A stretch of DNA of 64,000 bases, from NCBI RefSeq assembly GCF_017348835.2, contig NZ_CP072315.1. One strand, 5' to 3'. Numbering within the stretch: position 1 is the stretch's first letter; every line of letters starts with the position of its first letter. The stretch is from Escherichia coli. Its GTDB lineage: Bacteria; Pseudomonadota; Gammaproteobacteria; Enterobacterales; Enterobacteriaceae. The notes below the pieces were generated by a model, which saw only the letters and a list, made by a program, of their open reading frames with translations, was not told the origin of the DNA and did not search any database. Of this stretch, positions 368 through 16,628 are shown piece after piece. The position numbers were made by a program, and so were the translations under genes.

Positions 368-1549
368 ATGTTAAGCAGTAAAAAAAGGAAGTCCCCTACA
401 AATATCAAAGAATCGCTCAATGATAACGCTGACCGTTTTTATAAGATGTTTCGCATTCATACCACGGCAAAAGTTGCTATGTCGCTAATTGCCATGACCG
501 CTGTAGGGTTTTCTTTCTACAATCTTTACGAACAATGGCAGGACGCTGAAGGGAAGAAAGACCATATAGCTGTAATACGGATTTCTGGCGAGATGGGTAC
601 CGGCTCGGAAACGGGCGATGGAACAGTGATCGCAACAGCTCTTGCCAAAGCTTACAATAATCCCCATGCCAAAGCAGTTATTATCGAGGCAGAGTCAGGT
701 GGTGGTGGTCCCTCTGACGCCATCATTATTTACCGCCAGATAAACGCGCTTAAAAACCACCAGCCACAGATTGAACGCGTATCAGATGCCGGTTGCTCTC
801 TTTCATCTGTAGCCGCTGACAAGAGTAACAAAACCGGGAGCACAGAACGTGGCGATGAAGCACGGTCGAAGCAAAACTCCCTCGAAGTACTCTCCAGCGG
901 TACCGGTCGTTTTTTCTCTGATATCGCAGACTCATATAAACCAATCATCGTTAGTGTGAAAGGCATATGCGCATCCGCATGCTATTACGCGGTATCGCCC
1001 GCTGATGCAATTTATGCCGACAGTAATGCCCTGATCGGTTCTATCGGTGTGCGTATGGACCACTGGAATCTGTCAGAGATCATGAGCACAGTAGGCGTCA
1101 AGAATGAGCCCCTTACGGCCGGTGAGTTCAAAGATGCTCTTGACCCCTTCCACCCATTGTCCGATTCAACGAGGGAGTTCATGCAGAAGGAGATCCTGAA
1201 CACGATGCATGAAAAATTTATAACTGATGTTGAACTTGGACGGGGTAAAAAGCTTCTCTCGCGTCATGATGCCGATGCTGTTTCTCTCTATTCAGGCCGT
1301 GTATGGCCAACACCTCAGGCAGTTAAGTACGGCCTGGTGGATGGAGATCTTACGTCAGTAGAGATCCGTACACGTCTTTCAAAAATGTACTCCACTGACA
1401 CGTTCAAAAACTACAATGAGCCTCATCGTAATCTCCGTTCTGCACTCGGCATGCTGATGAGCCTGTCTTCAAATATTGAGAGCCTTACCGGTACCACTAC
1501 CCGCTTGGTAGAATCTGTTAATGCCACCAGCTACCCCTCTGTGAGGTAA
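368..1549 (+). CDS. S49-family (SppA-like) serine peptidase, membrane anchored
   Basis: N-terminal TM segment followed by an S49-like core (VIRISGEM, GICASACYYAVSPADAIYADSNALIGSIGV) by recall of SppA/SohB-type peptidases; stop overlaps next start. Confidence 0.6.
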   Translation: MLSSKKRKSPTNIKESLNDNADRFYKMFRIHTTAKVAMSLIAMTAVGFSFYNLYEQWQDAEGKKDHIAVIRISGEMGTGSETGDGTVIATALAKAYNNPHAKAVIIEAESGGGGPSDAIIIYRQINALKNHQPQIERVSDAGCSLSSVAADKSNKTGSTERGDEARSKQNSLEVLSSGTGRFFSDIADSYKPIIVSVKGICASACYYAVSPADAIYADSNALIGSIGVRMDHWNLSEIMSTVGVKNEPLTAGEFKDALDPFHPLSDSTREFMQKEILNTMHEKFITDVELGRGKKLLSRHDADAVSLYSGRVWPTPQAVKYGLVDGDLTSVEIRTRLSKMYSTDTFKNYNEPHRNLRSALGMLMSLSSNIESLTGTTTRLVESVNATSYPSVR

Positions 1550-1550
1550 C

Positions 1551-2282
1551 ATGGATGCTTTCAATCTGCTGTGGAGCATTACGGGGGTAGCTTTCATTAT
1601 CCTTATTTTCGTCGTGTTGCTGTGTCTGTTGGGTTTTATGACCTCTGCCATAGCGGAACGGCGGACTGCAAAGGCAATTGAATCTGGGCTTCCTGAAGAA
1701 GCTCAGGGGCTACTTAGTGATCTCACCTTTCAGTTGTCGGCTCATAGCACTACTCAGGTTGATCACATTCTCGTAGCCCCACATGGTATATACGTCATAG
1801 AGCAGAAAAACTACGTAGGCAAGCTCTACGGTACTCTGGAGGAAAGCCACTGGCGGAAATGGACTCAGTCCCGAACCCTCAAGTTGCAGAACCCGTTTAA
1901 GCAAAACCAGGGGCACATCAGGGCTATTCAGTCTGCTCTTAAGGCTAGAGAACTGGAATGTATCAATGTCGTCATCATAAACGGACGTTGTAAGTTTGAT
2001 GGCATCAAGCCGGAATGGTTATGTATGGGGATGGACGATTTTATCCATAAAGTCAAACAACGACGAGGGCTACGGTTGTTCACACCGGAGTCTGTTCAGC
2101 ACATCTGTTCGGTGTTGAAGTCAACAAGGAAGTCGCCAGGGCTCTATACGGACCTTACTCATATTCACAACATAACGACAAAGTACAAAGCCCCGATGAA
2201 ATTCGAGCAACGAGTAACATACATTCTGCTCAACTTTATCCATTATCTGTGGGCAAGTCTGTTCACTAAGCAGAAGCCTTAG
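1551..2282 (+). CDS. NERD (nuclease-related domain) protein with N-terminal TM helix
   Basis: N-terminal hydrophobic helix then NERD-like block (VDHILVAPHGIYVIEQKNYVGKLYG...W); translationally coupled to the peptidase gene. Confidence 0.55.
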   Translation: MDAFNLLWSITGVAFIILIFVVLLCLLGFMTSAIAERRTAKAIESGLPEEAQGLLSDLTFQLSAHSTTQVDHILVAPHGIYVIEQKNYVGKLYGTLEESHWRKWTQSRTLKLQNPFKQNQGHIRAIQSALKARELECINVVIINGRCKFDGIKPEWLCMGMDDFIHKVKQRRGLRLFTPESVQHICSVLKSTRKSPGLYTDLTHIHNITTKYKAPMKFEQRVTYILLNFIHYLWASLFTKQKP

Positions 2283-2352: not shown

Positions 2353-2568
2353 TTGCGTAGTTCTGATACGGTTTATCCTGTGGAGCATTATGGCCACCAG
2401 CCAGCTGGTGACTGGCCAACGCTTTGTATGACGTAGCCTACTCAGGGCAGGCTATTTTAGAGGGACCGATTTTTATCCGGGCTAATTTAGAAAGAGATAA
2501 TTTGAACTTAGGCGGGCTGACCACCAGCAGAGAGGTAAATCACTAGCCGGTGATATTGACAGAAGTCG

Positions 2569-2931
2569 TCAGGGGTTTAACGCCGGAATATTTTGCCAGG
2601 CCTCCTGCAAGGTCTGCAAGACTTCTACAAGTGATAGTGACGGCCACAGGACTGTTTCCGTCATTATCACTCCAGGTGGCTCGCACTCTACTGGTACCAG
2701 AATTAAAACAACACGAGTTCCTTTTACCTGGTAGGCAAGGTTTACTGCCGGTTGGCGGTAGGAGGCCAGTACACCCTCACCATATTGAGCAGGGTTACTT
2801 GCCCAGTTCCGCACCATTGCATACACCTGAGGCATATACCGACTATCCAGATCCCCTTTGGGCCGTCTGAACGGCACGATTTCTTCTGAGCGGTAGGTGG
2901 TCGTTGTTGTATTGGTTGTCATCTTTGTCAC
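2569..2931 (-). CDS. hypothetical protein
   Basis: 120-aa ORF co-oriented with and directly downstream of the 2988..3272 gene. Confidence 0.35.
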   Translation of the reverse strand: MTKMTTNTTTTTYRSEEIVPFRRPKGDLDSRYMPQVYAMVRNWASNPAQYGEGVLASYRQPAVNLAYQVKGTRVVLILVPVECEPPGVIMTETVLWPSLSLVEVLQTLQEAWQNIPALNP

Positions 2932-2987
2932 CTCCCCTGTTCGTCCATTTAGAGTTTTAAGCTGCTTTACACATCACACTCAACTGA

Positions 2988-3272
2988 TTATTTAAGCTGG
3001 TCATCGTCTCTGGCCAGCATAGCCCAACCATTCGACTGGTTTTCGCGGGAGTAAGGATTCATTTCAAAATAACTATCTACCGCGTCGCTGTCCGCAACAG
3101 AACTGTTGTTAGCTCTCTTTGAACCCTGAACCACTACAGCATCAACCTCTGCGGCTTTCCCGTTGCGCTGTACCAGGATTTTAACCGTCTTGGGCTTACG
3201 TCTTGCGAGCAGTTTGTTGGCGATAAAAAGCACAACAATCCAGGCCAAAAGCACGTATAAAAATTTATTCAT
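2988..3272 (-). CDS. small membrane-anchored hypothetical protein
   Basis: 94-aa ORF with N-terminal TM helix; palindromic motif about 160 bp upstream. Confidence 0.45.
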   Translation of the reverse strand: MNKFLYVLLAWIVVLFIANKLLARRKPKTVKILVQRNGKAAEVDAVVVQGSKRANNSSVADSDAVDSYFEMNPYSRENQSNGWAMLARDDDQLK

Positions 3273-3435
3273 AATGCCCTCCTTTGTATGTGATTATTAT
3301 ACCTGCTTCCATTGCAGGCCAAACAGGTTCGGTGTATGAAAAATAGACTTCTCTCCGGCGTATAGCAATCTACTTACTGATCTGTTTTCGTATCAAACTG
3401 TATGGCATAACCGAGGGGCGTACGTGGTGAGTCAG

Positions 3436-3446
3436 AAAGTTACTTT
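3436..3446. promoter_or_regulatory. AAAGTWACTTT palindromic motif copy
   Basis: aaagttacttt; about 160 bp upstream of the leftward gene starting at 3272. Confidence 0.5.
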
Positions 3447-3628
3447 TCCGTAATAGTTAATTTCAGATCCTTCTTCCAGTTACGCTTCAGTATAAAACCG
3501 ATACCCTCTAATTCAGCATCCTTCACGTTTAATACGCTTCACTTTAAGGCAGGGCTTTTCGGTTGATATGAATTCTTTTTCCGGTTGCTGGACATGGGTT
3601 TCATCCTGATAGTTAAAATTGCAGGCTA

Positions 3629-3931
3629 TCAGTCACCACCACCACCTCCTCCTCCTCCTCCTCCACCGCCACCATCACAACCACCAGCTATGCTATTTTC
3701 ACCATTACAATCACCTCCGAGGGGGTTCAAATGGCTGCTCCCCTGTAGATGGTGTCCTTGCCAGATCGAACCCGAACCAGCGCCTCCTGAGCGTCTTTGC
3801 TTGCCCTGAGGCAATTGTGCAGGCTCACCAGCACCGGCGGTCCCAAAAATGTCCCGGGCAATTTTATAAAGAAGGTAAAAAGGTACGCCCAGCATCATAA
3901 AAAAGATTACTGAAAATATTACACGTTCCAT
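3629..3931 (-). CDS. small Gly-rich membrane protein
   Basis: 100-aa ORF with N-terminal TM helix and a C-terminal run of 13 Gly encoded by the trinucleotide tract. Confidence 0.4.
   Translation of the reverse strand: MERVIFSVIFFMMLGVPFYLLYKIARDIFGTAGAGEPAQLPQGKQRRSGGAGSGSIWQGHHLQGSSHLNPLGGDCNGENSIAGGCDGGGGGGGGGGGGGD
3635..3690. repeat. trinucleotide simple-sequence tract (CCA/CCT)n
   Basis: caccaccaccacctcctcctcctcctcctccaccgccacc read directly; encodes a poly-Gly run in the minus-strand ORF. Confidence 0.8.
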
Positions 3932-4363
3932 TGATGATCTCCTGTCTTGTGAGAGACCAGTTATATCAGGGTGATTCAGTATTTCCGTTTAGAAAAGAGT
4001 ACTAATTTGGCCCTGTTCGATCTTAATTTGCCATCCGGGAAAAAGTCATAGGGATAGGCCTGCCAGAGTCAATAACTTCCAGTGATCTGGAGGAGACCCC
4101 GGCTCTCTGAGCCCTCATGGATGGTACGGCTTTACCCCCTGTAAACAGATTCACGTTCCGCAGGACAAACATCGACTACTGACGTCTCATATTTGCTGAC
4201 GCTAATCCGACGTCTCATTGCCGTCTGCTTGTTTTCTTTAAAGGGTGTATTAGACGAATATCAAATCGGAATGGTAGGGGATGTGTGGGCACCATGCCCG
4301 GCCCTCTTTGAGCATCTGAGAGATTGGAGACCTAGCCGGGTAAGATAGCTACTTTCTTACGGG

Positions 4364-4732
4364 TTACCCTTCAAATCCAAAGACGAAACGGACGCTGCCG
4401 TTCTCCACGTGGAGACGCTTTACTTCTTCGACAAATTCCTGGATCACCTCTCCGGCGTTATCGGGTGGTATGGCTGACAAAATTTCTTCCGAAGTCAGCC
4501 ATGAGTATGAATGTTCACCGAATAAATCATCATCTTCGGACGGTATATCATCAGGTAATCCGCGTAATGCGTGGATAAAAACTGCTGATGTGCTCGCCCT
4601 TTCACGATCTACATCAAATCCGAGCCAGGCAAAGTGGAGATATGATCGGTCCCCTTTATAATTGCTTGATAAATTAATCCATTTACCAGGCTTTTCTTCC
4701 CTTTGAAATCGCCAGCAGATATCAACGCCCAT
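4364..4732 (-). CDS. hypothetical protein
   Basis: 122-aa ORF, no recognisable motif. Confidence 0.4.
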   Translation of the reverse strand: MGVDICWRFQREEKPGKWINLSSNYKGDRSYLHFAWLGFDVDRERASTSAVFIHALRGLPDDIPSEDDDLFGEHSYSWLTSEEILSAIPPDNAGEVIQEFVEEVKRLHVENGSVRFVFGFEG

Positions 4733-4896
4733 TAAGAAACTCCATTACTATCGTTCGTATGAGATAACTATCATTTCAGAATACTATGACTTCTTCCCGT
4801 ATAGAACTAATCGCTCACGCCAACTGGGCGAAGCCAACCGGTTCCGCCACTTCGCTCATTGGTTTTTAGGCGTAAGCACTGAAGCCAGTCTCCATG

Positions 4897-5439
4897 CTAA
4901 CTGGCGAGCCTGCGAAAGTCAGACTCGTTGTTATAAAGCGGCATATCGTAAGCGGTGTCTGAAATGAACATGCGGATCTGCTCAAGCGTCATGCCACAAT
5001 GAAAACGGTTTACGCTCACATTGGCCCGGGGGAAGTCAGCACAAAACGCATTCAAAACATTTTCATGGACAATGCCAATGTTGATCAACGCAGCTGGCCC
5101 GTTGTCACGGAAGGATACGACACGGAATCCCCCATACCAGCCTGAATGGGAGAAAAATGAAAATGCGCCGGATGCCAGACCATTAGACAGGTCATAGCGC
5201 AATTTCCCGCACAGAGACTGGCTGTCTTTGCTGTACACGCGATTAATGAAAATACCGGGACCAACTTCTACCGGCTGCTTGTTGCTTGCTAAACACGGAA
5301 AGCCCACCAGCGAAACCTCCCTTTCTCCTGACCAGTTTACCTGATACCCGGCAGTGAGAAAGTCCGTCAGTTCTACGCCAGAAAGAGCATTAATGGCCGC
5401 GATATCGGTAGTCAAAATATTTACGTTTTTCATATTCAT
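4897..5439 (-). CDS. hypothetical protein
   Basis: 180-aa ORF, co-oriented with neighbours. Confidence 0.45.
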   Translation of the reverse strand: MNMKNVNILTTDIAAINALSGVELTDFLTAGYQVNWSGEREVSLVGFPCLASNKQPVEVGPGIFINRVYSKDSQSLCGKLRYDLSNGLASGAFSFFSHSGWYGGFRVVSFRDNGPAALINIGIVHENVLNAFCADFPRANVSVNRFHCGMTLEQIRMFISDTAYDMPLYNNESDFRRLAS

Positions 5440-5500
5440 CTCATCTTTATTCTAAAGTGCGTTTTTTGTCTATCAGCCCGAGGATTGAAAATTTGAATAT

Positions 5501-5938
5501 TTAATGTGACAGATAAATACCTGTCACTTTTTCAAAAACAGCCTGTAATTGAATATCGAGAGAGTTCATTTTAAAATCCACCAGCTCAGCTTTATTATCG
5601 CAAACCAAATAAAAATAGGAGTCAAATGCGTCTGTATCTTCATCTTTAAAAATACGGAAGGAATTAATTTTATCATGCCCTTCAAATTCGGCATGAATAC
5701 CATAGCGAACCGAGCCGTCATCGAACTGAACAACCCGTCGTACAGAATTAATCCGGACGTACTGTTTTAAGGCCCTCGCGAAATCGGCATTTAACGCCAA
5801 CGCTCGTAAGATTGAATCAGCGGTTTCATTCTGCTTTTTACGATCGTATTCAAATATCCCACAGCCGGTGTTACGAAAGACCGGCTGAAGAGCATTAACC
5901 AGGTTGAAGGAATCCACGTTTCTGTCGTTTCTGTACAT
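5501..5938 (-). CDS. hypothetical protein
   Basis: 145-aa ORF, co-oriented. Confidence 0.45.
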   Translation of the reverse strand: MYRNDRNVDSFNLVNALQPVFRNTGCGIFEYDRKKQNETADSILRALALNADFARALKQYVRINSVRRVVQFDDGSVRYGIHAEFEGHDKINSFRIFKDEDTDAFDSYFYLVCDNKAELVDFKMNSLDIQLQAVFEKVTGIYLSH

Positions 5939-5982
5939 GAGATATCTCCTGCCCCTCCGCTATACGAAGGGGCTTGATAGGG

Positions 5983-6279
5983 TTACTGCCAGGCTGCGAT
6001 CACTTCTTCGCACTGGAAATGAGATAAGCACTGCTGGAGTAGAAGAGCCAGCACCGCTGTGTTAGGGACGCGATTGTTACACCACGCGTTGAAAAGCAGC
6101 TGCCATGGACCGGCATAATACCCGGCCAGTTTCTTTTTTTGTTTAGCTGTACGGCAGCGGGAAATGGCCTGCTGATAAAGGCTTTCATTCTCATCACCAG
6201 CCCGTTTTTGCAGAGTGCGATAAATATACGAATAAAGACTGTCAGAACAGTTTGAAGCGTACGCCAGTTGTTTTTTCAT
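5983..6279 (-). CDS. hypothetical protein
   Basis: 98-aa ORF; conserved promoter-proximal element about 43 bp upstream of its start. Confidence 0.4.
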   Translation of the reverse strand: MKKQLAYASNCSDSLYSYIYRTLQKRAGDENESLYQQAISRCRTAKQKKKLAGYYAGPWQLLFNAWCNNRVPNTAVLALLLQQCLSHFQCEEVIAAWQ

Positions 6280-6321
6280 AATACCTCCTGTTTAGAAGTA
6301 TTATATGTAAACAGCCTCAGC

Positions 6322-6332
6322 GGCTAATAACC
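6322..6332 (-). promoter_or_regulatory. conserved promoter-proximal element (plus-strand GGCTAATAACC)
   Basis: About 43 bp upstream of the start at 6279. Confidence 0.45.
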
Positions 6333-6399
6333 CGTAGCAATATAATTTGCATTTTTTCTATTTCTGAAGACGCTTTTTAAATTAATATTTACTGAGTTA

Positions 6400-6678
6400 T
6401 CACAACTTATTATTCTTCCCGTCTGCTGTTTTATTAATCCCCCAGTTAGTAATCACGCCAAGTCGGCGCAATTTTTCACGTTGTTCATAAATAAAAAAAT
6501 CGCCAAGGCAGTCTTTTAAAACTTCACTATCCTGATATTTTATTTTTTGAAGCATCCTCGCAACTATGGCGCGTTTCAGGAATATGGCTGCATCAGACTC
6601 AAGCATTTGTGAGGACTGTCTGACGGTCTCCTGCATGTCGACGATACTGCTGAGCTTTCGTCTGACCACGCTTAGCAT
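6400..6678 (-). CDS. hypothetical protein
   Basis: 92-aa ORF. Confidence 0.35.
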   Translation of the reverse strand: MLSVVRRKLSSIVDMQETVRQSSQMLESDAAIFLKRAIVARMLQKIKYQDSEVLKDCLGDFFIYEQREKLRRLGVITNWGINKTADGKNNKL

Positions 6679-6862
6679 AGTGTCCGGGAACCGCTTAGCG
6701 GCTGAATGTAACCCGCAACAACGTTACGCATTGTTTTACTCACTGCAATTTTCCATTTAAGTCTGTTTGTTCCACCAGCTGCTAACATCAGCGTTATTCA
6801 TCCTGAGGTTTCGCCCGCGATTGACAGATCAGAGGCAGCATGGATGAAATTGCCAGAGTAGA

Positions 6863-7144
6863 TCACTGCATACGCGAATAGTGGTTTGTATTCAGTTCTG
6901 CGTTTGCCTGCTTTTCCAGTGCTGTCATAACCCGGCGGAGCATCGCCAGAGCCTGAACAGGCGAGCTCCCAAACTGCACTTTCACTTCAGCCGTATCATG
7001 ATCCTGAATCAGGTCGAGTATATTCACTTCGATCCCTGCCCCGTTTTCATCTTTTGCCGTGCACTGAATACTTACCCGGGTCACCGAATCCGTCAGGACT
7101 GGCAGTGGGTTAGTTTTGTCTACGTTGATAACAGCCTTCTTCAT
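6863..7144 (-). CDS. hypothetical protein
   Basis: 93-aa ORF directly downstream of the ParB-like gene. Confidence 0.4.
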   Translation of the reverse strand: MKKAVINVDKTNPLPVLTDSVTRVSIQCTAKDENGAGIEVNILDLIQDHDTAEVKVQFGSSPVQALAMLRRVMTALEKQANAELNTNHYSRMQ

Positions 7145-7209
7145 TGCCCTGTTTCCCCTTGTCCTGAAAAAGTTACCGACCCGTCCGGATGGAGGGGTCG
7201 GTCAGAAAA

Positions 7210-8394
7210 TCATGACTGTCCCTTGTTCATCTTATCAGCATGCTTACGCAGGTACTCTTTCAGGTCAGCATGAGCGTTGATGATATCGTTCATTTCATCA
7301 TTGGTCAGAACAAGCGTGTAAGTATCAGTACTGACAGATTCACCTTCTTTAAGCTTGGCTTCTTCAGCAATACGTTCAAAAATCGGGATCGCGGTGTCTG
7401 CAATGACGGTCACAGTCTTTTTGTTCAGAACGCTGGACATGGAAGGTGCTTTACCTGCCGGGTTCTGTTTAGGAGCGCTGTCCTTTGGAGCTGGAGCCGG
7501 TTCCTGTACCGGTGGCGTATCCAGCGTCTCCGTATTGCTTTCATCGTTCAGTTGATCCGGTACCGGGGTGTTATCGGTAGTATCATCTGCCGGTTGCTCA
7601 GCACCGATGTTTTCCGGAGTCTGCGGATCTGCCATGCGCTCTTCTACCTTGGCAGCTTTGACGAATTTCAGCGTGTTTTTCGTCGCCTTGCCATAGATGG
7701 AGATCGCTTTGTTGATGTTATCTACCGCATCCTCACCGCTGTACATATACTCGTCCAGTGCAACGTACATGCTCACCTGATCGCTCACAAGCATGGTCTG
7801 TAGTTCAGAAGGCAGGTCCAGTACGCGAACCATCTGGCGAAGATGCTGCTCTGATTTACCACGTTTTTTTGCCAGTTCCGCAAAGGTCTTAGGCTCTTCT
7901 TTATCTTCAACCAGACGCTTAATTGAAAGCGCTTCAGCTACGACAGACAGCGCCAGGTTGGAGTTGCCGGTCAGGGTGAAGAGTTCTGCTTTTGAAGCGC
8001 TACCGCGAAACTCTTCGCAGCGAATACGAGTAATGCGTTCACGCCCTTCTGCTTCCAGCTGGCGGTTTGCAATAGCGATGGAACGGATACGGCAAGCCCC
8101 CTGACGCAGTACAGGTACGCCATTAACCATCTGAACAACGATAGGCGTCACGCTGAACGGGTCTTCCATGTAGGCATCGGCCAGGCTGTTCAGGTGTTCC
8201 ACAACGTGAGGCATTGAATAGTAGAGCTCGCCCATACCGGCCGTGCGGGTGTTAAAGCCTTCCTGCTCTACAACAACCGAAGGGTCAATGATAAGGCCGT
8301 TGCCTTTACGGGCACCGTTACCAGTGCGTTCCAGGTAACCACGAAGGCTGATTTCGTTGCTGTTGTTTTTTACTTCAGTTTCGATTGCGGACAT
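7210..8394 (-). CDS. ParB/Srx-domain (ParB-like nuclease) protein
   Basis: N-terminal ParB-like block (GFNTR ... VVQMVNGVPVLRQGACRIRSIAIA), paralogous to the ORFs at 55984..57147 and 60358..61413; Pro/acidic linker; two palindromic motif copies upstream. Confidence 0.7.
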   Translation of the reverse strand: MSAIETEVKNNSNEISLRGYLERTGNGARKGNGLIIDPSVVVEQEGFNTRTAGMGELYYSMPHVVEHLNSLADAYMEDPFSVTPIVVQMVNGVPVLRQGACRIRSIAIANRQLEAEGRERITRIRCEEFRGSASKAELFTLTGNSNLALSVVAEALSIKRLVEDKEEPKTFAELAKKRGKSEQHLRQMVRVLDLPSELQTMLVSDQVSMYVALDEYMYSGEDAVDNINKAISIYGKATKNTLKFVKAAKVEERMADPQTPENIGAEQPADDTTDNTPVPDQLNDESNTETLDTPPVQEPAPAPKDSAPKQNPAGKAPSMSSVLNKKTVTVIADTAIPIFERIAEEAKLKEGESVSTDTYTLVLTNDEMNDIINAHADLKEYLRKHADKMNKGQS

Positions 8395-11798: not shown

Positions 11799-12110
11799 AG
11801 GGCTGCATCAGCCAGGCCCGGATATAAATACATGCTCTGCCAGGTGAGTACCACTGCCCGGTAGCCGAATGATAAGTTTTGATTTCACGGTTGCAATTTC
11901 TCCCTCTGGCATCACTGCTCCACGATGCACCCCGATCAGCTTAGCGTCTGAAAATGAAGATGCACCGGACCTGCATGAAGCGGAACGGTGCCCAGCTGAG
12001 TGTTTGTGGGCACAATGAACCGCAATTTCATGATGGGAATGAAAGATGGCTGGTGGCCCGCTGATATGAACGCTTACCCTGCATAACGTTACTAACCACA
12101 ATCTTTTCAC

Positions 12111-12149
12111 TAAAAGAAAAAAGGGTTCCTCCGCTTTAGAGGAACCCTT
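12111..12149 (-). terminator. rho-independent terminator of the hok transcript
   Basis: Inverted repeat aagggttcctc/gaggaaccctt followed by a T-run on the minus strand; separated from the hok stop by the IS186 insertion. Confidence 0.5.
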
Positions 12150-12205
12150 TCAAAAGGTGCCGATGGCATACTAATCCACACCCTGAAAAGAGGGGGGTTG
12201 CCCCC

Positions 12206-13543
12206 ATAAGCGCTAACTTAAGGGTTGAACCATCTGAAGAATGCGACGCCTCGGTGCCTCGTTAAGACGATGCCTCGCGTTCTTCAATTGCGTTTTGTAG
12301 GCTGTCAGGGATACTGTCCCACGAATGGCCACCTGTAAGCTCCAGATGACCATTTTTGTTATTCTCCACAACGAGTTAGTTCTTCTTTTCGGATCCGGCA
12401 CTTCTGGGGGGGAAATCCAGCGATGGCTGGATTATGTCGTCAATTAAAAATGCGGCGAGTAGATTAGCAAATATCCACGCTTTCGCGAGTTCAGGTTCCT
12501 TTGCACGCAAAGCATCCAGGTGCAGCAAACTTTTGAGCCGCTTAAAAGCCAGTTCAATTTGCCATCGCAGACGGTAACAATCAGCCACTTGCTCTGCTGA
12601 ATATTCATCTTCCGGTAATGATGTTAGCAATAGCACATGGCCCGCTGCTTCCAGCGTTTCCGCCTGAACTACTCGTCCTTTTCGACGATTCTCGCTGAGC
12701 AGTCGGGTTTTACTGATTAATGCTTTTTCGGGAGGAAGTGATACGGCAATGAGACGTGCCGGAAAGGGAGCTCCGGCTTTTTTATTACCTGAATTGCCTA
12801 TCATTACAGTGGTTTCACCGTTCTTACCGCAATCCAGCCCGCGCAGAAAACCCATCATGTCAAAGCGCATTCCTTCTGCAGTTAACCAGCGCAATCCTCG
12901 CCAGTGAACCCGGACGATATAATCAGCTTCTCCAAAAGCAAGTGAGCGGATACATTCGGGACGCGAACCGAATCCCCGGTCAGCAATGCGTATCTCGTCT
13001 GCCGTTTGCGCAAATCGGTCCAGCCGTTCAGCGTCTCTGCTGTCGGTTAGCTCAAAATCAGTGAACTGACAGGTATGAGGATCATATCCCATATGTAGTC
13101 GCCATTCAGCGCTGCCGCCCCCGGGCGCACTGATTGCTGTTCCATCGACAAGACGCAATCTCTTTCCGCTTGTACAACCCGTAACTGCGGCGCGTACAGC
13201 AAGTGTTTGTGCGGCAAGTATGCCAAACCAGTCGGCGGCATTCCGCAGCCGCTTCAGGAGAGCCACGTCAGATAATGTTGCAACGTCATGGAGCTGAGCC
13301 CATGCAGTGACTTCACGTAATGACATCCCCCCGGGGCCGTAAGCCAGCCCCAGACGTAGCAGAGTTGCAGCATCACGAATTTCGCGGCGGCGGGTTAGAG
13401 CCCCGGCATTACGTGCCGAAGTATCCAGTTCTTCGGGCTTACCAATATGGGCCAGAATTGCTGACCAGTTATCGTGAGAGTAATTCATCGGCACGTTAAA
13501 TCATATCAGGCGTAATACCACAACCCTTAAGTTAGCGCTTATG
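12206..13543 (-). mobile_element. IS186 (IS4 family), complete copy
   Basis: 1338-bp element with terminal inverted repeats cataagcgctaacttaagggttg / caacccttaagttagcgcttatg, flanked by a duplicated GC-rich target (gggggttgccccc). Confidence 0.9.
12376..13494 (-). CDS. insL: IS186 transposase
   Basis: 372-aa IS4-family DDE transposase with the YRLRWQIELAFKRLKS signature; matches my recollection of E. coli InsL. Confidence 0.9.
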   Translation of the reverse strand: MPMNYSHDNWSAILAHIGKPEELDTSARNAGALTRRREIRDAATLLRLGLAYGPGGMSLREVTAWAQLHDVATLSDVALLKRLRNAADWFGILAAQTLAVRAAVTGCTSGKRLRLVDGTAISAPGGGSAEWRLHMGYDPHTCQFTDFELTDSRDAERLDRFAQTADEIRIADRGFGSRPECIRSLAFGEADYIVRVHWRGLRWLTAEGMRFDMMGFLRGLDCGKNGETTVMIGNSGNKKAGAPFPARLIAVSLPPEKALISKTRLLSENRRKGRVVQAETLEAAGHVLLLTSLPEDEYSAEQVADCYRLRWQIELAFKRLKSLLHLDALRAKEPELAKAWIFANLLAAFLIDDIIQPSLDFPPRSAGSEKKN

Positions 13544-13566
13544 GGGGTTGCCCCCCTCTTTGTCAG

Positions 13567-13725
13567 CTACTTACCGGATTCGTAGGCCAGGATAGCAAAT
13601 ACCTCCCTTGTTCCGTCTTTCATCCGCAACTCGCAAAGCGAGTTTCGTGTGAGCCAGGTGAATATCAACAGCGTTAAACAAACTATTAATATGCACAAAA
13701 CAATGGGTTGGTTCGGCATTTTCAT
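13567..13725 (-). CDS. hok: Hok/Gef-family type I toxin
   Basis: 52-aa product [52 protein letters not shown] closely resembles Hok; the ORF track shows an in-frame 5' extension to 13782. Confidence 0.8.
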
Positions 13726-13823
13726 GGCCTTCTTCTCCTTGCATTTAAGCAGGCAAGAGGCTACGCTGTGTGTGACTAGCATACAGGGGCCTCGGGTTGT
13801 ACTGACCCCAGAAAGTTGGACAG

Positions 13824-14675
13824 TTAAACACGAGGCATATAGGTCTGATTCCGATATTCAATTGGAGTCAGACCTTTTAATTTCAGGCTAATTCTTCTGC
13901 TGTTGTAGTATTCAATATATTCCGTAACAGCATCCTTCAGCTCGCTTATATTACTGAACTCATCAAGATAAAAACACTCCGACTTTAAGGTTCCAAAGAA
14001 ACACTCCACCACAGCATTATCCAGACAATTGCCTTTTCTGGACATGCTTTGTTTAATACCATGTTCTTTAAGGATATTTTGATATCTTCTCATACGATAC
14101 TGCCATCCCTGGTCAGAGTGCAGAACAGGATGCTCGTGAGGATTAAGCTTTTTGAATGCCTGATCGAGCATATTCTCGACCATGTTCATCACTGGTCTTT
14201 CCGAAAGGCTGTAAGAAATAACTTCGTTGTTGAAGAGATCTATTACTGGAGACAAATACAGCTTGCGCCCATTGACTGCAAATTCAGTAACATCGGTAAC
14301 CCACTTCTCGTTTGGCCGCGTAGCCTTGAAATCTCTTTGGAGAACATTGGGGGCGGTTTGCCCTACCTCTCCTCTGTAAGAGCGGTATCGCTTGACCTTA
14401 ATCGCTGCCTTCAGTGAGAGGATTCCCATCAGGCGCTGAACAGCTTTATGGTTAATCTGTTTCCCTTCTCGATGAAGAGACAGCGTTACCCTACGGTATC
14501 CGTATCGGCCTCTATTCTCATGATAAATCTCACCAATACGCTTTTTAACGTCCGCATACTTGTCAGGCTTGCTGAGAGCCTTTAGATGGTAATAAAACGT
14601 ACTGCGCGGTATCTCCGCAGCCCTGAGAAGCTCATCAAGAGGATAAAACTGCCTTAGCTCGTTGAGTACTTTCAC
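13824..14675 (-). CDS. insK: IS150 OrfB (DDE integrase part; made as OrfAB by -1 frameshift)
   Basis: 283-aa IS3-family integrase-like ORF overlapping OrfA at the A AAA AAG slippery site. Confidence 0.9.
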
Positions 14676-15193
14676 TTTTTCGTGGGATGAGCTAAGGCTT
14701 TCAGCTTTTTTAGATACACAAGCCGCGTTTCAAGAAATCGAACTTGCCTTTCAAGATCCTCAATGCGTCGGTCTTTTGACAGCTCCAATGCTGATGCCGC
14801 TTTTTCTGGATCAACTGATATTGCAATGTTTCTTTTGGTGCCAATCTTGAGCGCGCGTAAACCAGCTTCTCCGCGCTCTTCATAAACCTTCAGCCACCTG
14901 GCTACAGAACCACTACCAGCAAGCATAAAGTGAGCAGCAGCCTGATTAAGGGACATGTGCTGCTCGATCACCGCTTTCACGACCTTAATACGCAACTCAG
15001 GATCAGCACTAACACCTTTAGGTTTGGGAATTAAACCTTTTTCTCCATGTTTTTCATAGAGGGCAACCCATGTCCTGACCTGGGTTCGGGGGACACCAAA
15101 ACGTGCCGAGATGATCCTGTAACCATCATCAGTAGTGAAGTAGTGATTCACGACTTCAAGGCGCTTTTCAAAAGGGTATTTTGGCTTTGACAT
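14672..15193 (-). CDS. insJ: IS150 OrfA (HTH transposase subunit)
   Basis: 173-aa HTH/leucine-zipper ORF typical of IS3-family OrfA. Confidence 0.9.
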   Translation of the reverse strand: MSKPKYPFEKRLEVVNHYFTTDDGYRIISARFGVPRTQVRTWVALYEKHGEKGLIPKPKGVSADPELRIKVVKAVIEQHMSLNQAAAHFMLAGSGSVARWLKVYEERGEAGLRALKIGTKRNIAISVDPEKAASALELSKDRRIEDLERQVRFLETRLVYLKKLKALAHPTKK

Positions 15194-15525
15194 ATCAGGG
15201 GCTATTCCATTTCATCGTCCAACAAAATGGGTGCAGTACAGGTTAATTGAAAAATTACTCGGGGCTTTCTGCTTTTACCACAGTCAAACAGTGTTACCGC
15301 TGGCTGGGGCAAAAGCCTCCAGCACCAGCGTCATTATATCACTCTGCCCTGATCAGCCAAACACCCTGCCTGCATAAATCATTGATTTATAATTTATTTG
15401 ACATGAGTCACTTCCGGTTGTCGGAGACAGTCTTTTTACACTAAAGAAAAGGGTAACGGGCAGCTGCTTGGTCGGAACATACAGTGCAGTTCCTGCCCGT
15501 TTAATTTCCGGATGCAATGGTAGGA

Positions 15526-16131
15526 TCAGGAGGCACTGGTTCCGTTGATTAGGGAAAGCTTATGTGCCTGAATACGGCTGTATTCGAGATGGGATGGAAT
15601 ATTACAGATGCGCTCCAGTCGATCATGCAGCCTCGTGTAGGTCAGTCGATGAATACCGGACATTTCATCAAGTAGCCAGCGCTTGATGTAAGGGTTACAG
15701 GAAAGCCGGGCAAGATCGTCGTCATCCACTTCGTCAAAGAACCAGTACTGCTCCATCGGGACTACCTGAAATATCCACGGCCGGGGATAGTCCCCTGTGA
15801 CAACCAAAAACCATGCGAGAAAGCATAGACACAGCTCAACGATCATCAGCATCGAAAATTGCGAATAACTTAGACCAGGCACATAGGGTGAACTATCCGC
15901 AACATACCCCCTGAACAATTCCGCCACAAGGTAGCCCAATAGCGACAAGGCCAGCATCAGGGTCAGGATTAATCCCCCATTAAACGCTACCGAAGCCTTT
16001 TGAACCCGATCAGGTGCTGTCCGGCTGCGATAGTTGGTCACTACTCTTTCTACAAGTGCCCTTATGGCAGCCTGTTCTTTACTGACATCAGCTCCGGAAA
16101 AACCGGACGGGCTTTTATTTAATTCAGTCAT
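15526..16131 (-). CDS. membrane protein, unknown function
   Basis: 201-aa ORF with two long hydrophobic segments. Confidence 0.45.
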   Translation of the reverse strand: MTELNKSPSGFSGADVSKEQAAIRALVERVVTNYRSRTAPDRVQKASVAFNGGLILTLMLALSLLGYLVAELFRGYVADSSPYVPGLSYSQFSMLMIVELCLCFLAWFLVVTGDYPRPWIFQVVPMEQYWFFDEVDDDDLARLSCNPYIKRWLLDEMSGIHRLTYTRLHDRLERICNIPSHLEYSRIQAHKLSLINGTSAS

Positions 16132-16346: not shown

Positions 16347-16628
16347 TTACTCTTTTTCCTGCATAGCGGCTTTTTCAGCCCGGGTGGCCAGGCGAGCATT
16401 TCCGAAAGGTTCACGGACAAGCAGGGGCTTCTCCTTCTTCCAGCCCCTGATAGCCGTTTCTCCAAAACGACGTGGTGCATTGCCGTTCCAGCGAGCAATC
16501 ACATGATTATCATGAATTTCTATAATGACAACGGGGTGGACAATGACCGTTGTAATGGTGGTATTTCCCATTTTGGTACGGGTTACAGACCAAACCTGCA
16601 TCCCGGATTCCAGCTGGCTGATTTTCAT
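16347..16628 (-). CDS. hypothetical protein
   Basis: 93-aa ORF. Confidence 0.3.
   Translation of the reverse strand: MKISQLESGMQVWSVTRTKMGNTTITTVIVHPVVIIEIHDNHVIARWNGNAPRRFGETAIRGWKKEKPLLVREPFGNARLATRAEKAAMQEKE

Follow-up and report, generated by a model that had tools for sequence, protein, structure and literature searches.

A hok/sok killing module on an IncHI2 plasmid, very probably inactivated by IS150 and IS186

Can a toxin gene that has kept its reading frame, and that stands between two insertion sequence (IS) elements, still belong to a working killing module? This question is raised by a hok toxin locus in a stretch of 64,000 nucleotides from Escherichia coli (contig NZ_CP072315.1 of assembly GCF_017348835.2), which was analysed as a whole and is called the window below. 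An earlier note on this DNA had recognized a Hok-family open reading frame (ORF) with IS150 on one side and IS186 on the other. Our analysis indicates that the locus is very likely the hok/sok module for post-segregational killing that belongs to the IncHI2 plasmid backbone, and that two independent insertions have broken it. The region is IncHI2 plasmid backbone, with a 100% match to many large plasmids of E. coli, Salmonella and Klebsiella typed as IncHI2A/MOBH, for example pMTY9868_IncHI2 and relatives of pAPEC-O1-R.

Both IS elements were removed in silico and a single copy of each target duplication was left, giving a restored locus of 1105 bp. At least 40 IncHI2 plasmids, pAPEC-O1-R among them, contain this sequence uninterrupted and with 100% identity, and 70 PLSDB records match it at 80% coverage or more. 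The excision proposed in the earlier note thus yielded a hok/sok locus that is continuous in IS-free relatives. The intact pAPEC-O1-R locus, which equals the restored one, scored 81.1 bits with the Rfam model RF01794 (hok leader/sok; gathering score 59), whereas the two halves in the window reached 46.7 and 34.4 bits, in line with the earlier suggestion that the regulatory RNA context is broken. A scan of the whole 64-kb window against Rfam at gathering thresholds gave no match and no second hok/sok locus, so standard RNA-family annotation misses the module completely.

The coding part of the locus consists of the following features.

13567..13725, minus strand: intact hok toxin ORF of 52 aa (NCBIfam NF007279, Pfam PF01848)
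13567..13782, minus strand: mok-like ORF of 71 codons, in frame with hok (ORF list; K-12 mokC/hokC annotation)
13782..13780, minus strand: mok ATG, with its Shine-Dalgarno sequence GAGG at 13793..13790, 4 nt from the IS150 end

The toxin ORF is a small (~50 aa) membrane toxin of the Hok/Gef family, as had been claimed for it. It scored 122.8 bits with the NCBIfam Hok subfamily NF007279 (cut-off 73), in a match that covers residues 1-52 of 52 and the whole model, and 63.1 bits with Pfam HOK_GEF (PF01848). The overlapping mok frame is shared with hok, as in K-12 mokC/hokC; in the K-12 annotation, mokC and mokA end at the same stop as hokC and hokA, respectively. On identical plasmids, RefSeq/PGAP calls a Hok of only 39 aa from a TTG at 13686 (WP_223165953.1) and places a Mok-like (DUF5431) pseudogene at 13634..13744, in a different frame. 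Against the 39-aa call, the family models span the full 52 aa that start with the ATG at 13725, and the ORF equivalent to mok shares the hok frame.

The elements that govern the hok mRNA were located at both ends of the locus.

15333..15360, minus strand: hok promoter (P_hok), TTGGCT-16(TG)-TATAAT (promoter scan, 10/12 matches, extended -10)
15244..15326, minus strand: first 83 nt of the hok mRNA leader, including tac and the first stem-loop (Rfam alignment, fold)
15326..15317, minus strand: tac, GGUGCUGGAG, mRNA nt 1-10 (Rfam alignment, fold)
12156..12165, minus strand: fold-back inhibition (fbi) element, CAUCGGCACC (pairs with mRNA nt 1-10)
12109..12151, minus strand: original hok intrinsic terminator, hairpin at 12119..12151 and T-run (terminator scan, 14-bp stem)

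From its predicted start just past P_hok to the terminator hairpin at 12119..12151, the restored mRNA is 418 nt long and folds with a minimum free energy (MFE) of -169 kcal/mol (z = -7.35). In both its MFE and its centroid structure, nt 1-10 pair with nt 366-375 just before the terminator, which forms the last hairpin of the fold. The restored mRNA therefore has the tac-fbi fold-back, and in the window both IS elements separate the two partners. P_hok and the terminator, each found by scan, likewise lie on the far sides of the two elements, and the terminator hairpin stands 1.4 kb away, as the earlier note had described it.

On the upstream side, the insertion and its parts are as follows.

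13798..15240, minus strand: IS150, 1443 bp, in the same direction as hok (inverted repeats, IS3-family transposase)
14672..15193, minus strand: IS150 orfA
13824..14675, minus strand: IS150 orfB
14711..14705, minus strand: A AAA AAG site of the -1 frameshift
13841..13875, plus strand: terminator-like hairpin inside the IS150 end, at the 3' end of orfB on the antisense strand (scan, 15-bp stem followed by TTTTAATTT)

This copy is 98.8% identical to K-12 IS150, and its transposase belongs to the IS3 family (NF033516, 348 bits). It has TG...CA inverted repeats and an orfA/orfB pair, both intact, the A AAA AAG frameshift site and a target duplication within the 3-5 bp of its class. The duplication is GGT (3 bp, at 13795-97 and 15241-43), and 73 nt separate the A of the hok ATG from the first IS150 base; boundaries and duplication are those given in the earlier note. 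For the inverted-repeat patterns of IS150 and IS186, zero matches are expected in shuffled sequence. IS150 lies between nt 83 and 84 of the hok mRNA, in the zone where the note had expected the mok/sok leader and promoter; in addition, it cuts the Sok gene inside its terminator stem-loop. The hok side retains the sok promoter, the Sok 5' tail, the mok Shine-Dalgarno sequence and ATG (13793-13780) and hok, and the far side holds P_hok, tac, the first leader stem-loop and the 3' half of Sok. The hok promoter (15333..15360, minus strand) is now aimed in sense at the transposase-proximal end of IS150 (15240), and such a strong promoter could raise expression of this IS150 copy.

The antitoxin gene was delimited by comparison with K-12.

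13739..13767, plus strand: sok promoter, -35 TTGCAT (13739-44), 17-nt spacer, -10 TACGCT (13762-67) (homology to annotated K-12 sokC and sokE)
13774..13797, plus strand: first 24 nt of Sok, GACUAGCAUACAGGGGCCUCGGGU, still joined to the promoter, the last 3 nt being the GGT duplication (alignment to sokC and sokE)
15241..15276, plus strand: second GGT copy (15241-43) and the 3' 33 nt of Sok, with loop, right arm of the terminator stem and U-tail (alignment to sokC and sokE)

By alignment with the sokC and sokE RNAs annotated in K-12, Sok begins at ~13774 and has its 3' end at ~15276. The native RNA of 57 nt folds as expected, as a 5' tail followed by a stem-loop (z = -4.2), and homology points to a putative cis-encoded antisense Sok. 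The search for a sok-like antisense promoter at 13726-13797, suggested in the earlier note, gave a divided answer: homology to sokC and sokE supplies one, and a simple sigma-70 consensus scan did not call it. IS150 cuts Sok after 24 nt, in the 5' arm of the terminator stem-loop. The hairpin at 13841..13875 would stop transcription entering IS150 from outside and is predicted to end the truncated sok transcript, as a chimeric sok::IS150 RNA of ~110 nt; the fold of 13774..13886 has z = -6.09 and leaves a single-stranded 5' tail of 15 nt.

On the downstream side, the hok locus is interrupted a second time.

12206..13542, minus strand: IS186/IS421 core, 1337 bp (IS4-family transposase, inverted repeats)
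12203..13545, minus strand: IS186/IS421 with terminal CCC/GGG, 1343 bp, by the convention of Lee et al. 2016 (PMC5009759)
12379..13494, minus strand: IS186 transposase ORF, in the same direction as hok
12192..12202, no strand: left half of the IS186 target, GGGG and the duplicated core GGTTGCC (core 12196..12202; motif per PMC5009759)
13546..13556, no strand: right core copy GGTTGCC and CCCC

This copy is identical to K-12 IS186A at 1337/1337 positions, ends in perfect inverted repeats of 22 nt and encodes a single DDE transposase of the IS4 family (133 bits). On either side stands the 13-bp repeat GGGGGTTGCCCCC (12193-12205 and 13543-13555), of which, by the published convention, only the 7-nt core GGTTGCC inside GGGG(N7)CCCC counts as the true duplication (PMC5009759). 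When 12186..12205 is joined to 13546..13556, the hairpin AAAGAGGGGGG-CAA-CCCCCCUCUUU is restored, beginning 7 nt past the hok stop. IS186 sits in the loop of this GC hairpin, after mRNA nt 325. The earlier placement in a GC-rich hairpin of the 3' untranslated region, with a target duplication, is therefore upheld, and the distance of 23 bp past the stop holds within the ambiguity of the IS boundary. Beyond IS186 lie both fbi and the terminator, now 1.4 kb from the hok ORF; the note had named only the terminator as stranded.

IS186 targets GGGG(N6/N7)CCCC, duplicates the core and inserts in either orientation (Lee et al. 2016, PMC5009759). The hok hairpin is a perfect example, GGGG(GGTTGCC)CCCC, as foreseen in the remark that a GC palindrome fits the preference of IS186, and it is the sole canonical GGGG(N6/N7)CCCC motif in the restored window of 61.2 kb. 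An unoccupied GGGG(N5)CCCC site, GGGGATAGTCCCC, lies at 15783..15795 inside a 201-aa ORF (15526..16131) and is non-canonical for IS186. A composite transposon made of IS150 and IS186 was ruled out, given that the two come from different IS families and that each is flanked by a separate duplication.

What would this double interruption do to the module? In plasmid R1, where the intact system is established, hok mRNA is long-lived and its tac end is paired with fbi near the 3' end. This fold-back keeps the full-length mRNA inert and untranslatable. Slow 3' trimming then activates it, and the short-lived antisense Sok blocks mok/hok translation as long as the plasmid is present. The intact IncHI2 locus, as predicted from the restored sequence, would work alike, with P_hok giving a long-lived mRNA of 418 nt locked by tac and fbi. 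In the window allele, the 1.4 kb of IS150 separate mok/hok, together with the sok promoter and the initial 24 nt of Sok, from P_hok, tac and the Sok 3' half, and IS186, in the loop of the GC hairpin, has moved fbi and the terminator 1.4 kb away. With tac, fbi and terminator no longer linked, no stable pool of locked mRNA would be expected and native Sok would not be made. Since neither the locked pool nor native Sok could form, post-segregational killing of plasmid-free cells is very probably lost in this disrupted allele. The intact hok ORF would be silent, or weakly expressed by read-through. This is consistent with work on K-12 gef/hokC, where the downstream IS186 is thought to disrupt fbi and normal processing, and where the gene is still transcribed and antisense-regulated (PMC3562002).

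To learn how common this allele is, diagnostic junction queries were run against PLSDB and records with at least 80% coverage were counted. The queries carried 400 bp of IS sequence; with 100 bp, intact alleles or alleles of the wrong orientation pass the 80% bar. Six allelic states were found among ~590 plasmids.

Intact allele: ~70 records
IS150 only: 321 records
IS186 forward only: 16 records
IS186 reverse only: ~58 records (124 with reverse IS186 in all, minus 66 that also have IS150)
IS186 reverse and IS150: 66 records
IS186 forward and IS150 (window allele): 58 records

At least one IS element is thus present in the hok/sok module of ~88% (519/589) of the related plasmids. The reverse IS186, as in pSTM6-275, has the same IS sequence, site and flanking repeat as the forward copy. 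A search for reverse-orientation IS150 at the IncHI2 site found none, and it did return cases on IncF and IncI2 plasmids (see below). A flank of ~9.3 kb is 100% identical across the four alleles compared (IS186 forward and IS150, IS186 forward only, IS150 only, intact); the flanks being invariant, the number of independent insertion events cannot be counted from these data. Two apparent differences were set aside. A difference between alleles in the annotation of a neighbouring gene was merely different start-site calling, and the flanking repeat of p13E573-HI2, 1 nt shorter, was not counted as an independent event, as this record is 97.9% identical, with fragmented ORFs and a G-run difference.

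The hok ORF is intact in the ~520 plasmids with IS-bearing alleles, which argues against uncontrolled toxin expression. Of the two outcomes offered in the earlier note, inactive or deregulated, inactivity is accordingly the better supported for the disrupted module.

Why were these two positions struck? The homologous hairpin after the stop codon holds IS186 in other hok loci, namely K-12 hokC, K-12 hokE and a locus on an IncHI1 plasmid. In K-12 hokC and hokE, the element lies in a GGGG(N6)CCCC hairpin, 18-19 bp past the stop codon. The target cores are as follows.

K-12 hokC: AGTGAT
K-12 hokE: AGTAAT
IncHI1 plasmid hok locus: GGTCGCC
This IncHI2 locus, both orientations: GGTTGCC

On the IncHI1 plasmid (NZ_MW800636.1), IS186 occupies 864..2200 in the hairpin GGGG(GGTCGCC)CCCC of a diverged hok homolog, whose Hok differs at 8/52 residues and whose remaining hok/sok elements are all intact. 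IS150 recurs in the same manner. In four hok loci it is found at the homologous Sok stem-loop site ...TTAACC/C... (slash at the insertion point), ~20 nt past the conserved motif AAAGCCCC.

This IncHI2 locus: GGT duplication
R1-like IncF locus, pNDM5_020007 (NZ_CP025626.1), 2436..3878: opposite orientation, GGT duplication
R1-like IncI2 locus, NZ_CP144929.1, 2441..3882, within ±1-2 nt: opposite orientation, GGGTT duplication
K-12 hokA/sokA: no duplication

The IS150 copies differ in sequence and are therefore independent events. We found no literature description of IS150 at the Sok stem-loop site; IS150 is said to show some insertion preference, unlike most members of the IS3 family (PMC10379815). 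The idea that IS150 is drawn to a lookalike of its own inverted repeat near the target (TGTATGC, compared with TGTACTGC) was dropped, as the lookalike is not conserved in the IncF and IncI2 targets. With a canonical IS186 target in the hairpin, and with IS150 insertions at the GGGT/TAAT site of Sok in several hok loci, it is target-site preference and not coincidence that accounts for both positions.

Site preference may nevertheless not be the whole explanation. Loss of killing could have been selected for in epidemic IncHI2 plasmids, through lower cost or easier displacement, with IS elements as the commonest route to inactivation and site preference alone insufficient. The large share of struck plasmids would fit, as would the convergence of two different IS elements on one module of 400 bp and the similar fate of the K-12 chromosomal hok loci. 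The IS186 site, however, matches the published hot-spot motif perfectly and has no second of its kind in 61 kb, so recurrence is expected without selection, and the PLSDB frequencies are dominated by clonal resistance lineages and are not independent. Moreover, the hok ORF was never broken in the alleles examined, which are all 100% identical there, and the flanks offer no single-nucleotide polymorphisms by which events could be counted. We regard a role for selection as possible, if on the unlikely side.

A second alternative holds that the module is rewired rather than dead. P_hok or an IS150 promoter would read through into mok/hok, and the chimeric sok::IS150 antisense RNA, fully complementary to the read-through transcript and ending at the hairpin inside IS150, would restrain Hok. 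The outcome would be a weak or deregulated toxin-antitoxin pair, possibly with P_hok boosting expression of the IS150 transposase. Several observations weigh on this side and against loss of killing. Both IS elements are co-oriented with hok, no minus-strand terminator is predicted by scan between P_hok (15333) and hok (13567), and the mok Shine-Dalgarno sequence and ATG are intact together with the hok ORF, so that read-through into mok/hok is conceivable. Also left in place are the sok promoter and the part of Sok that forms its single-stranded 5' tail, and the predicted chimeric RNA, with its free tail of 15 nt and strong terminator (z = -6.1), could permit some regulated expression; K-12 gef/hokC, which carries IS186, is likewise still transcribed and antisense-regulated (PMC3562002). 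The assigned sok promoter is itself weak by consensus (3/6 and 3/6) and was identified by homology alone, the PLSDB collection is redundant and clonally biased, and for every allele we infer loss of killing from the biology of R1. On the other hand, the rewired arrangement is purely predictive. Its tac, fbi and native Sok stem-loop are all unlinked, and in R1 these are needed for timing, stability and Sok function. Read-through over 1.4 kb of translated IS150 is likely weak, and the orientation of IS186 is roughly unbiased (74 forward vs 124 reverse), with no sign of a selected transcriptional arrangement. We therefore consider a rewired module improbable and retain the inactivated one.

It could also be proposed that IS186 inserted once, and that in-situ inversion through its extended terminal inverted repeats of 27 bp, followed by homologous recombination between plasmids, produced all combinations. 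The copies of either orientation share one sequence, position and flanking repeat, and recombination would leave no trace in the 9.3 kb of flanking backbone, which does not differ among the four alleles compared. Yet single GGGG(N6/7)CCCC sites were struck by IS186 up to 16 independent times in mutation-accumulation data, in either orientation (PMC5009759), and the insertions into the same hairpin of divergent hok loci with different cores (IncHI1, hokC, hokE) are necessarily independent. A 27-bp inverted repeat is in addition a poor RecA substrate, and IncHI2 plasmids are mutually incompatible, which limits co-residence. A single insertion followed by shuffling is thus quite doubtful. Finally, IS elements are a classic source of misassembly, but misplaced copies can practically be dismissed here: 58 independent records of complete plasmids and 23 complete E. 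coli genomes show these junctions at 100% identity, the target duplications of both insertions are clean, and the excision product is a known sequence.

The preferred reading, two independent insertions at preferred sites, can tentatively be extended. We hypothesize, as a speculation that we hold to be rather unlikely in its entirety, that hok/sok carries two conserved landing sites encoded by its own structure, one for IS186 in the GC hairpin just behind the stop codon and one for IS150 in the apical part of the Sok stem-loop, GGGT/TAAT. These would act as recurrent off-switches of killing across IncHI2, IncHI1, IncF, IncI2 and chromosomal loci, the IS150 site would represent a target preference not defined before, the chimeric sok::IS150 RNA would be a functional antitoxin, and P_hok would drive the IS150 transposase.

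Plasmids of the IncHI2 group are important vehicles of mcr-1 and further multidrug resistance genes, and addiction modules are often named as part of the reason why they persist. On plasmids with these alleles, hok/sok should not be listed among the functional determinants of stability. The locus also provides a natural and well-sampled example of an IS hot spot, which could help to define the target preference of IS150 and to place plasmid sublineages in time. An IncHI2 plasmid with intact hok (NZ_CP022165.1) illustrates the clinical setting of this part of the backbone: an ISApl1-mcr-1-PAP2 module (3721..7310) lies ~6 kb upstream of its hok locus. Elsewhere in the window, the minus-strand ORF at 16347..16628 (282 nt, 93 aa, hypothetical) carries the PLSDB rgi call 'Brucella suis mprF, defensin resistance, 100% identity', which looks like a database artefact.

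Compared with R1 (parB) hok/sok, the archetypal type I toxin-antitoxin system, the restored locus shares the hok promoter, the 5'-3' pairing of tac and fbi, the mok/hok arrangement with the shared start region AAGGAGAAGAAGGCCAUG, a putative antisense Sok of ~57 nt with 5' tail and terminator stem-loop, the GC hairpin after the stop and the terminal terminator. It differs from R1 in Hok sequence and in having mok in frame with hok, as in K-12 mokC, and the module in the window is in three pieces and below the Rfam gathering score. In the IncHI2 reference plasmid R478, an 'IS186B between orf321 and ldrB' was catalogued as an accessory module with no functional reading (PMC5955447). Judged by that published description alone, the likeness lies in an IS186B next to a small toxin gene, there named ldrB.

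Known IS186 hot spots (lon promoter, fimA, menC) resemble the present site in having a perfect motif, a duplicated 7-nt core and both orientations at the identical position (PMC5009759). Unlike them, the target here is a conserved structural hairpin in the 3' untranslated region of a toxin mRNA, with varying cores in at least four hok loci. The GGGG(N6/N7)CCCC hot spots of IS186 were reportedly already described by SaiSree in 2001.

The closest parallels are the chromosomal hok loci of K-12. Pedersen and Gerdes are said to have described in Mol Microbiol in 1999 (32:1090) that hokA/sokA::IS150, hokC(gef)/sokC::IS186 and hokE/sokE::IS186 are inactivated by IS elements. In the K-12 annotation, the same two IS types are found at homologous positions, with ORFs intact and regulatory RNA elements unlinked, and in hokA IS150 likewise splits mokA/sokA at the Sok terminator loop, ~20 nt past AAAGCCCC. 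In contrast to K-12, both elements here strike one locus, which is borne by an IncHI2 plasmid and not by the chromosome. Compared with hokA, the duplications are clean at both elements, whereas hokA has none, and IS150 has the opposite orientation. The window locus is thus a plasmid-borne, doubly struck case of an already known and well-understood type of event, the IS disruption of hok loci. Unlike in K-12, intermediate alleles and the empty site still circulate on IncHI2 plasmids, and what the locus adds to the known cases is that the empty site, both single-insertion alleles and both orientations of IS186 can be observed side by side.

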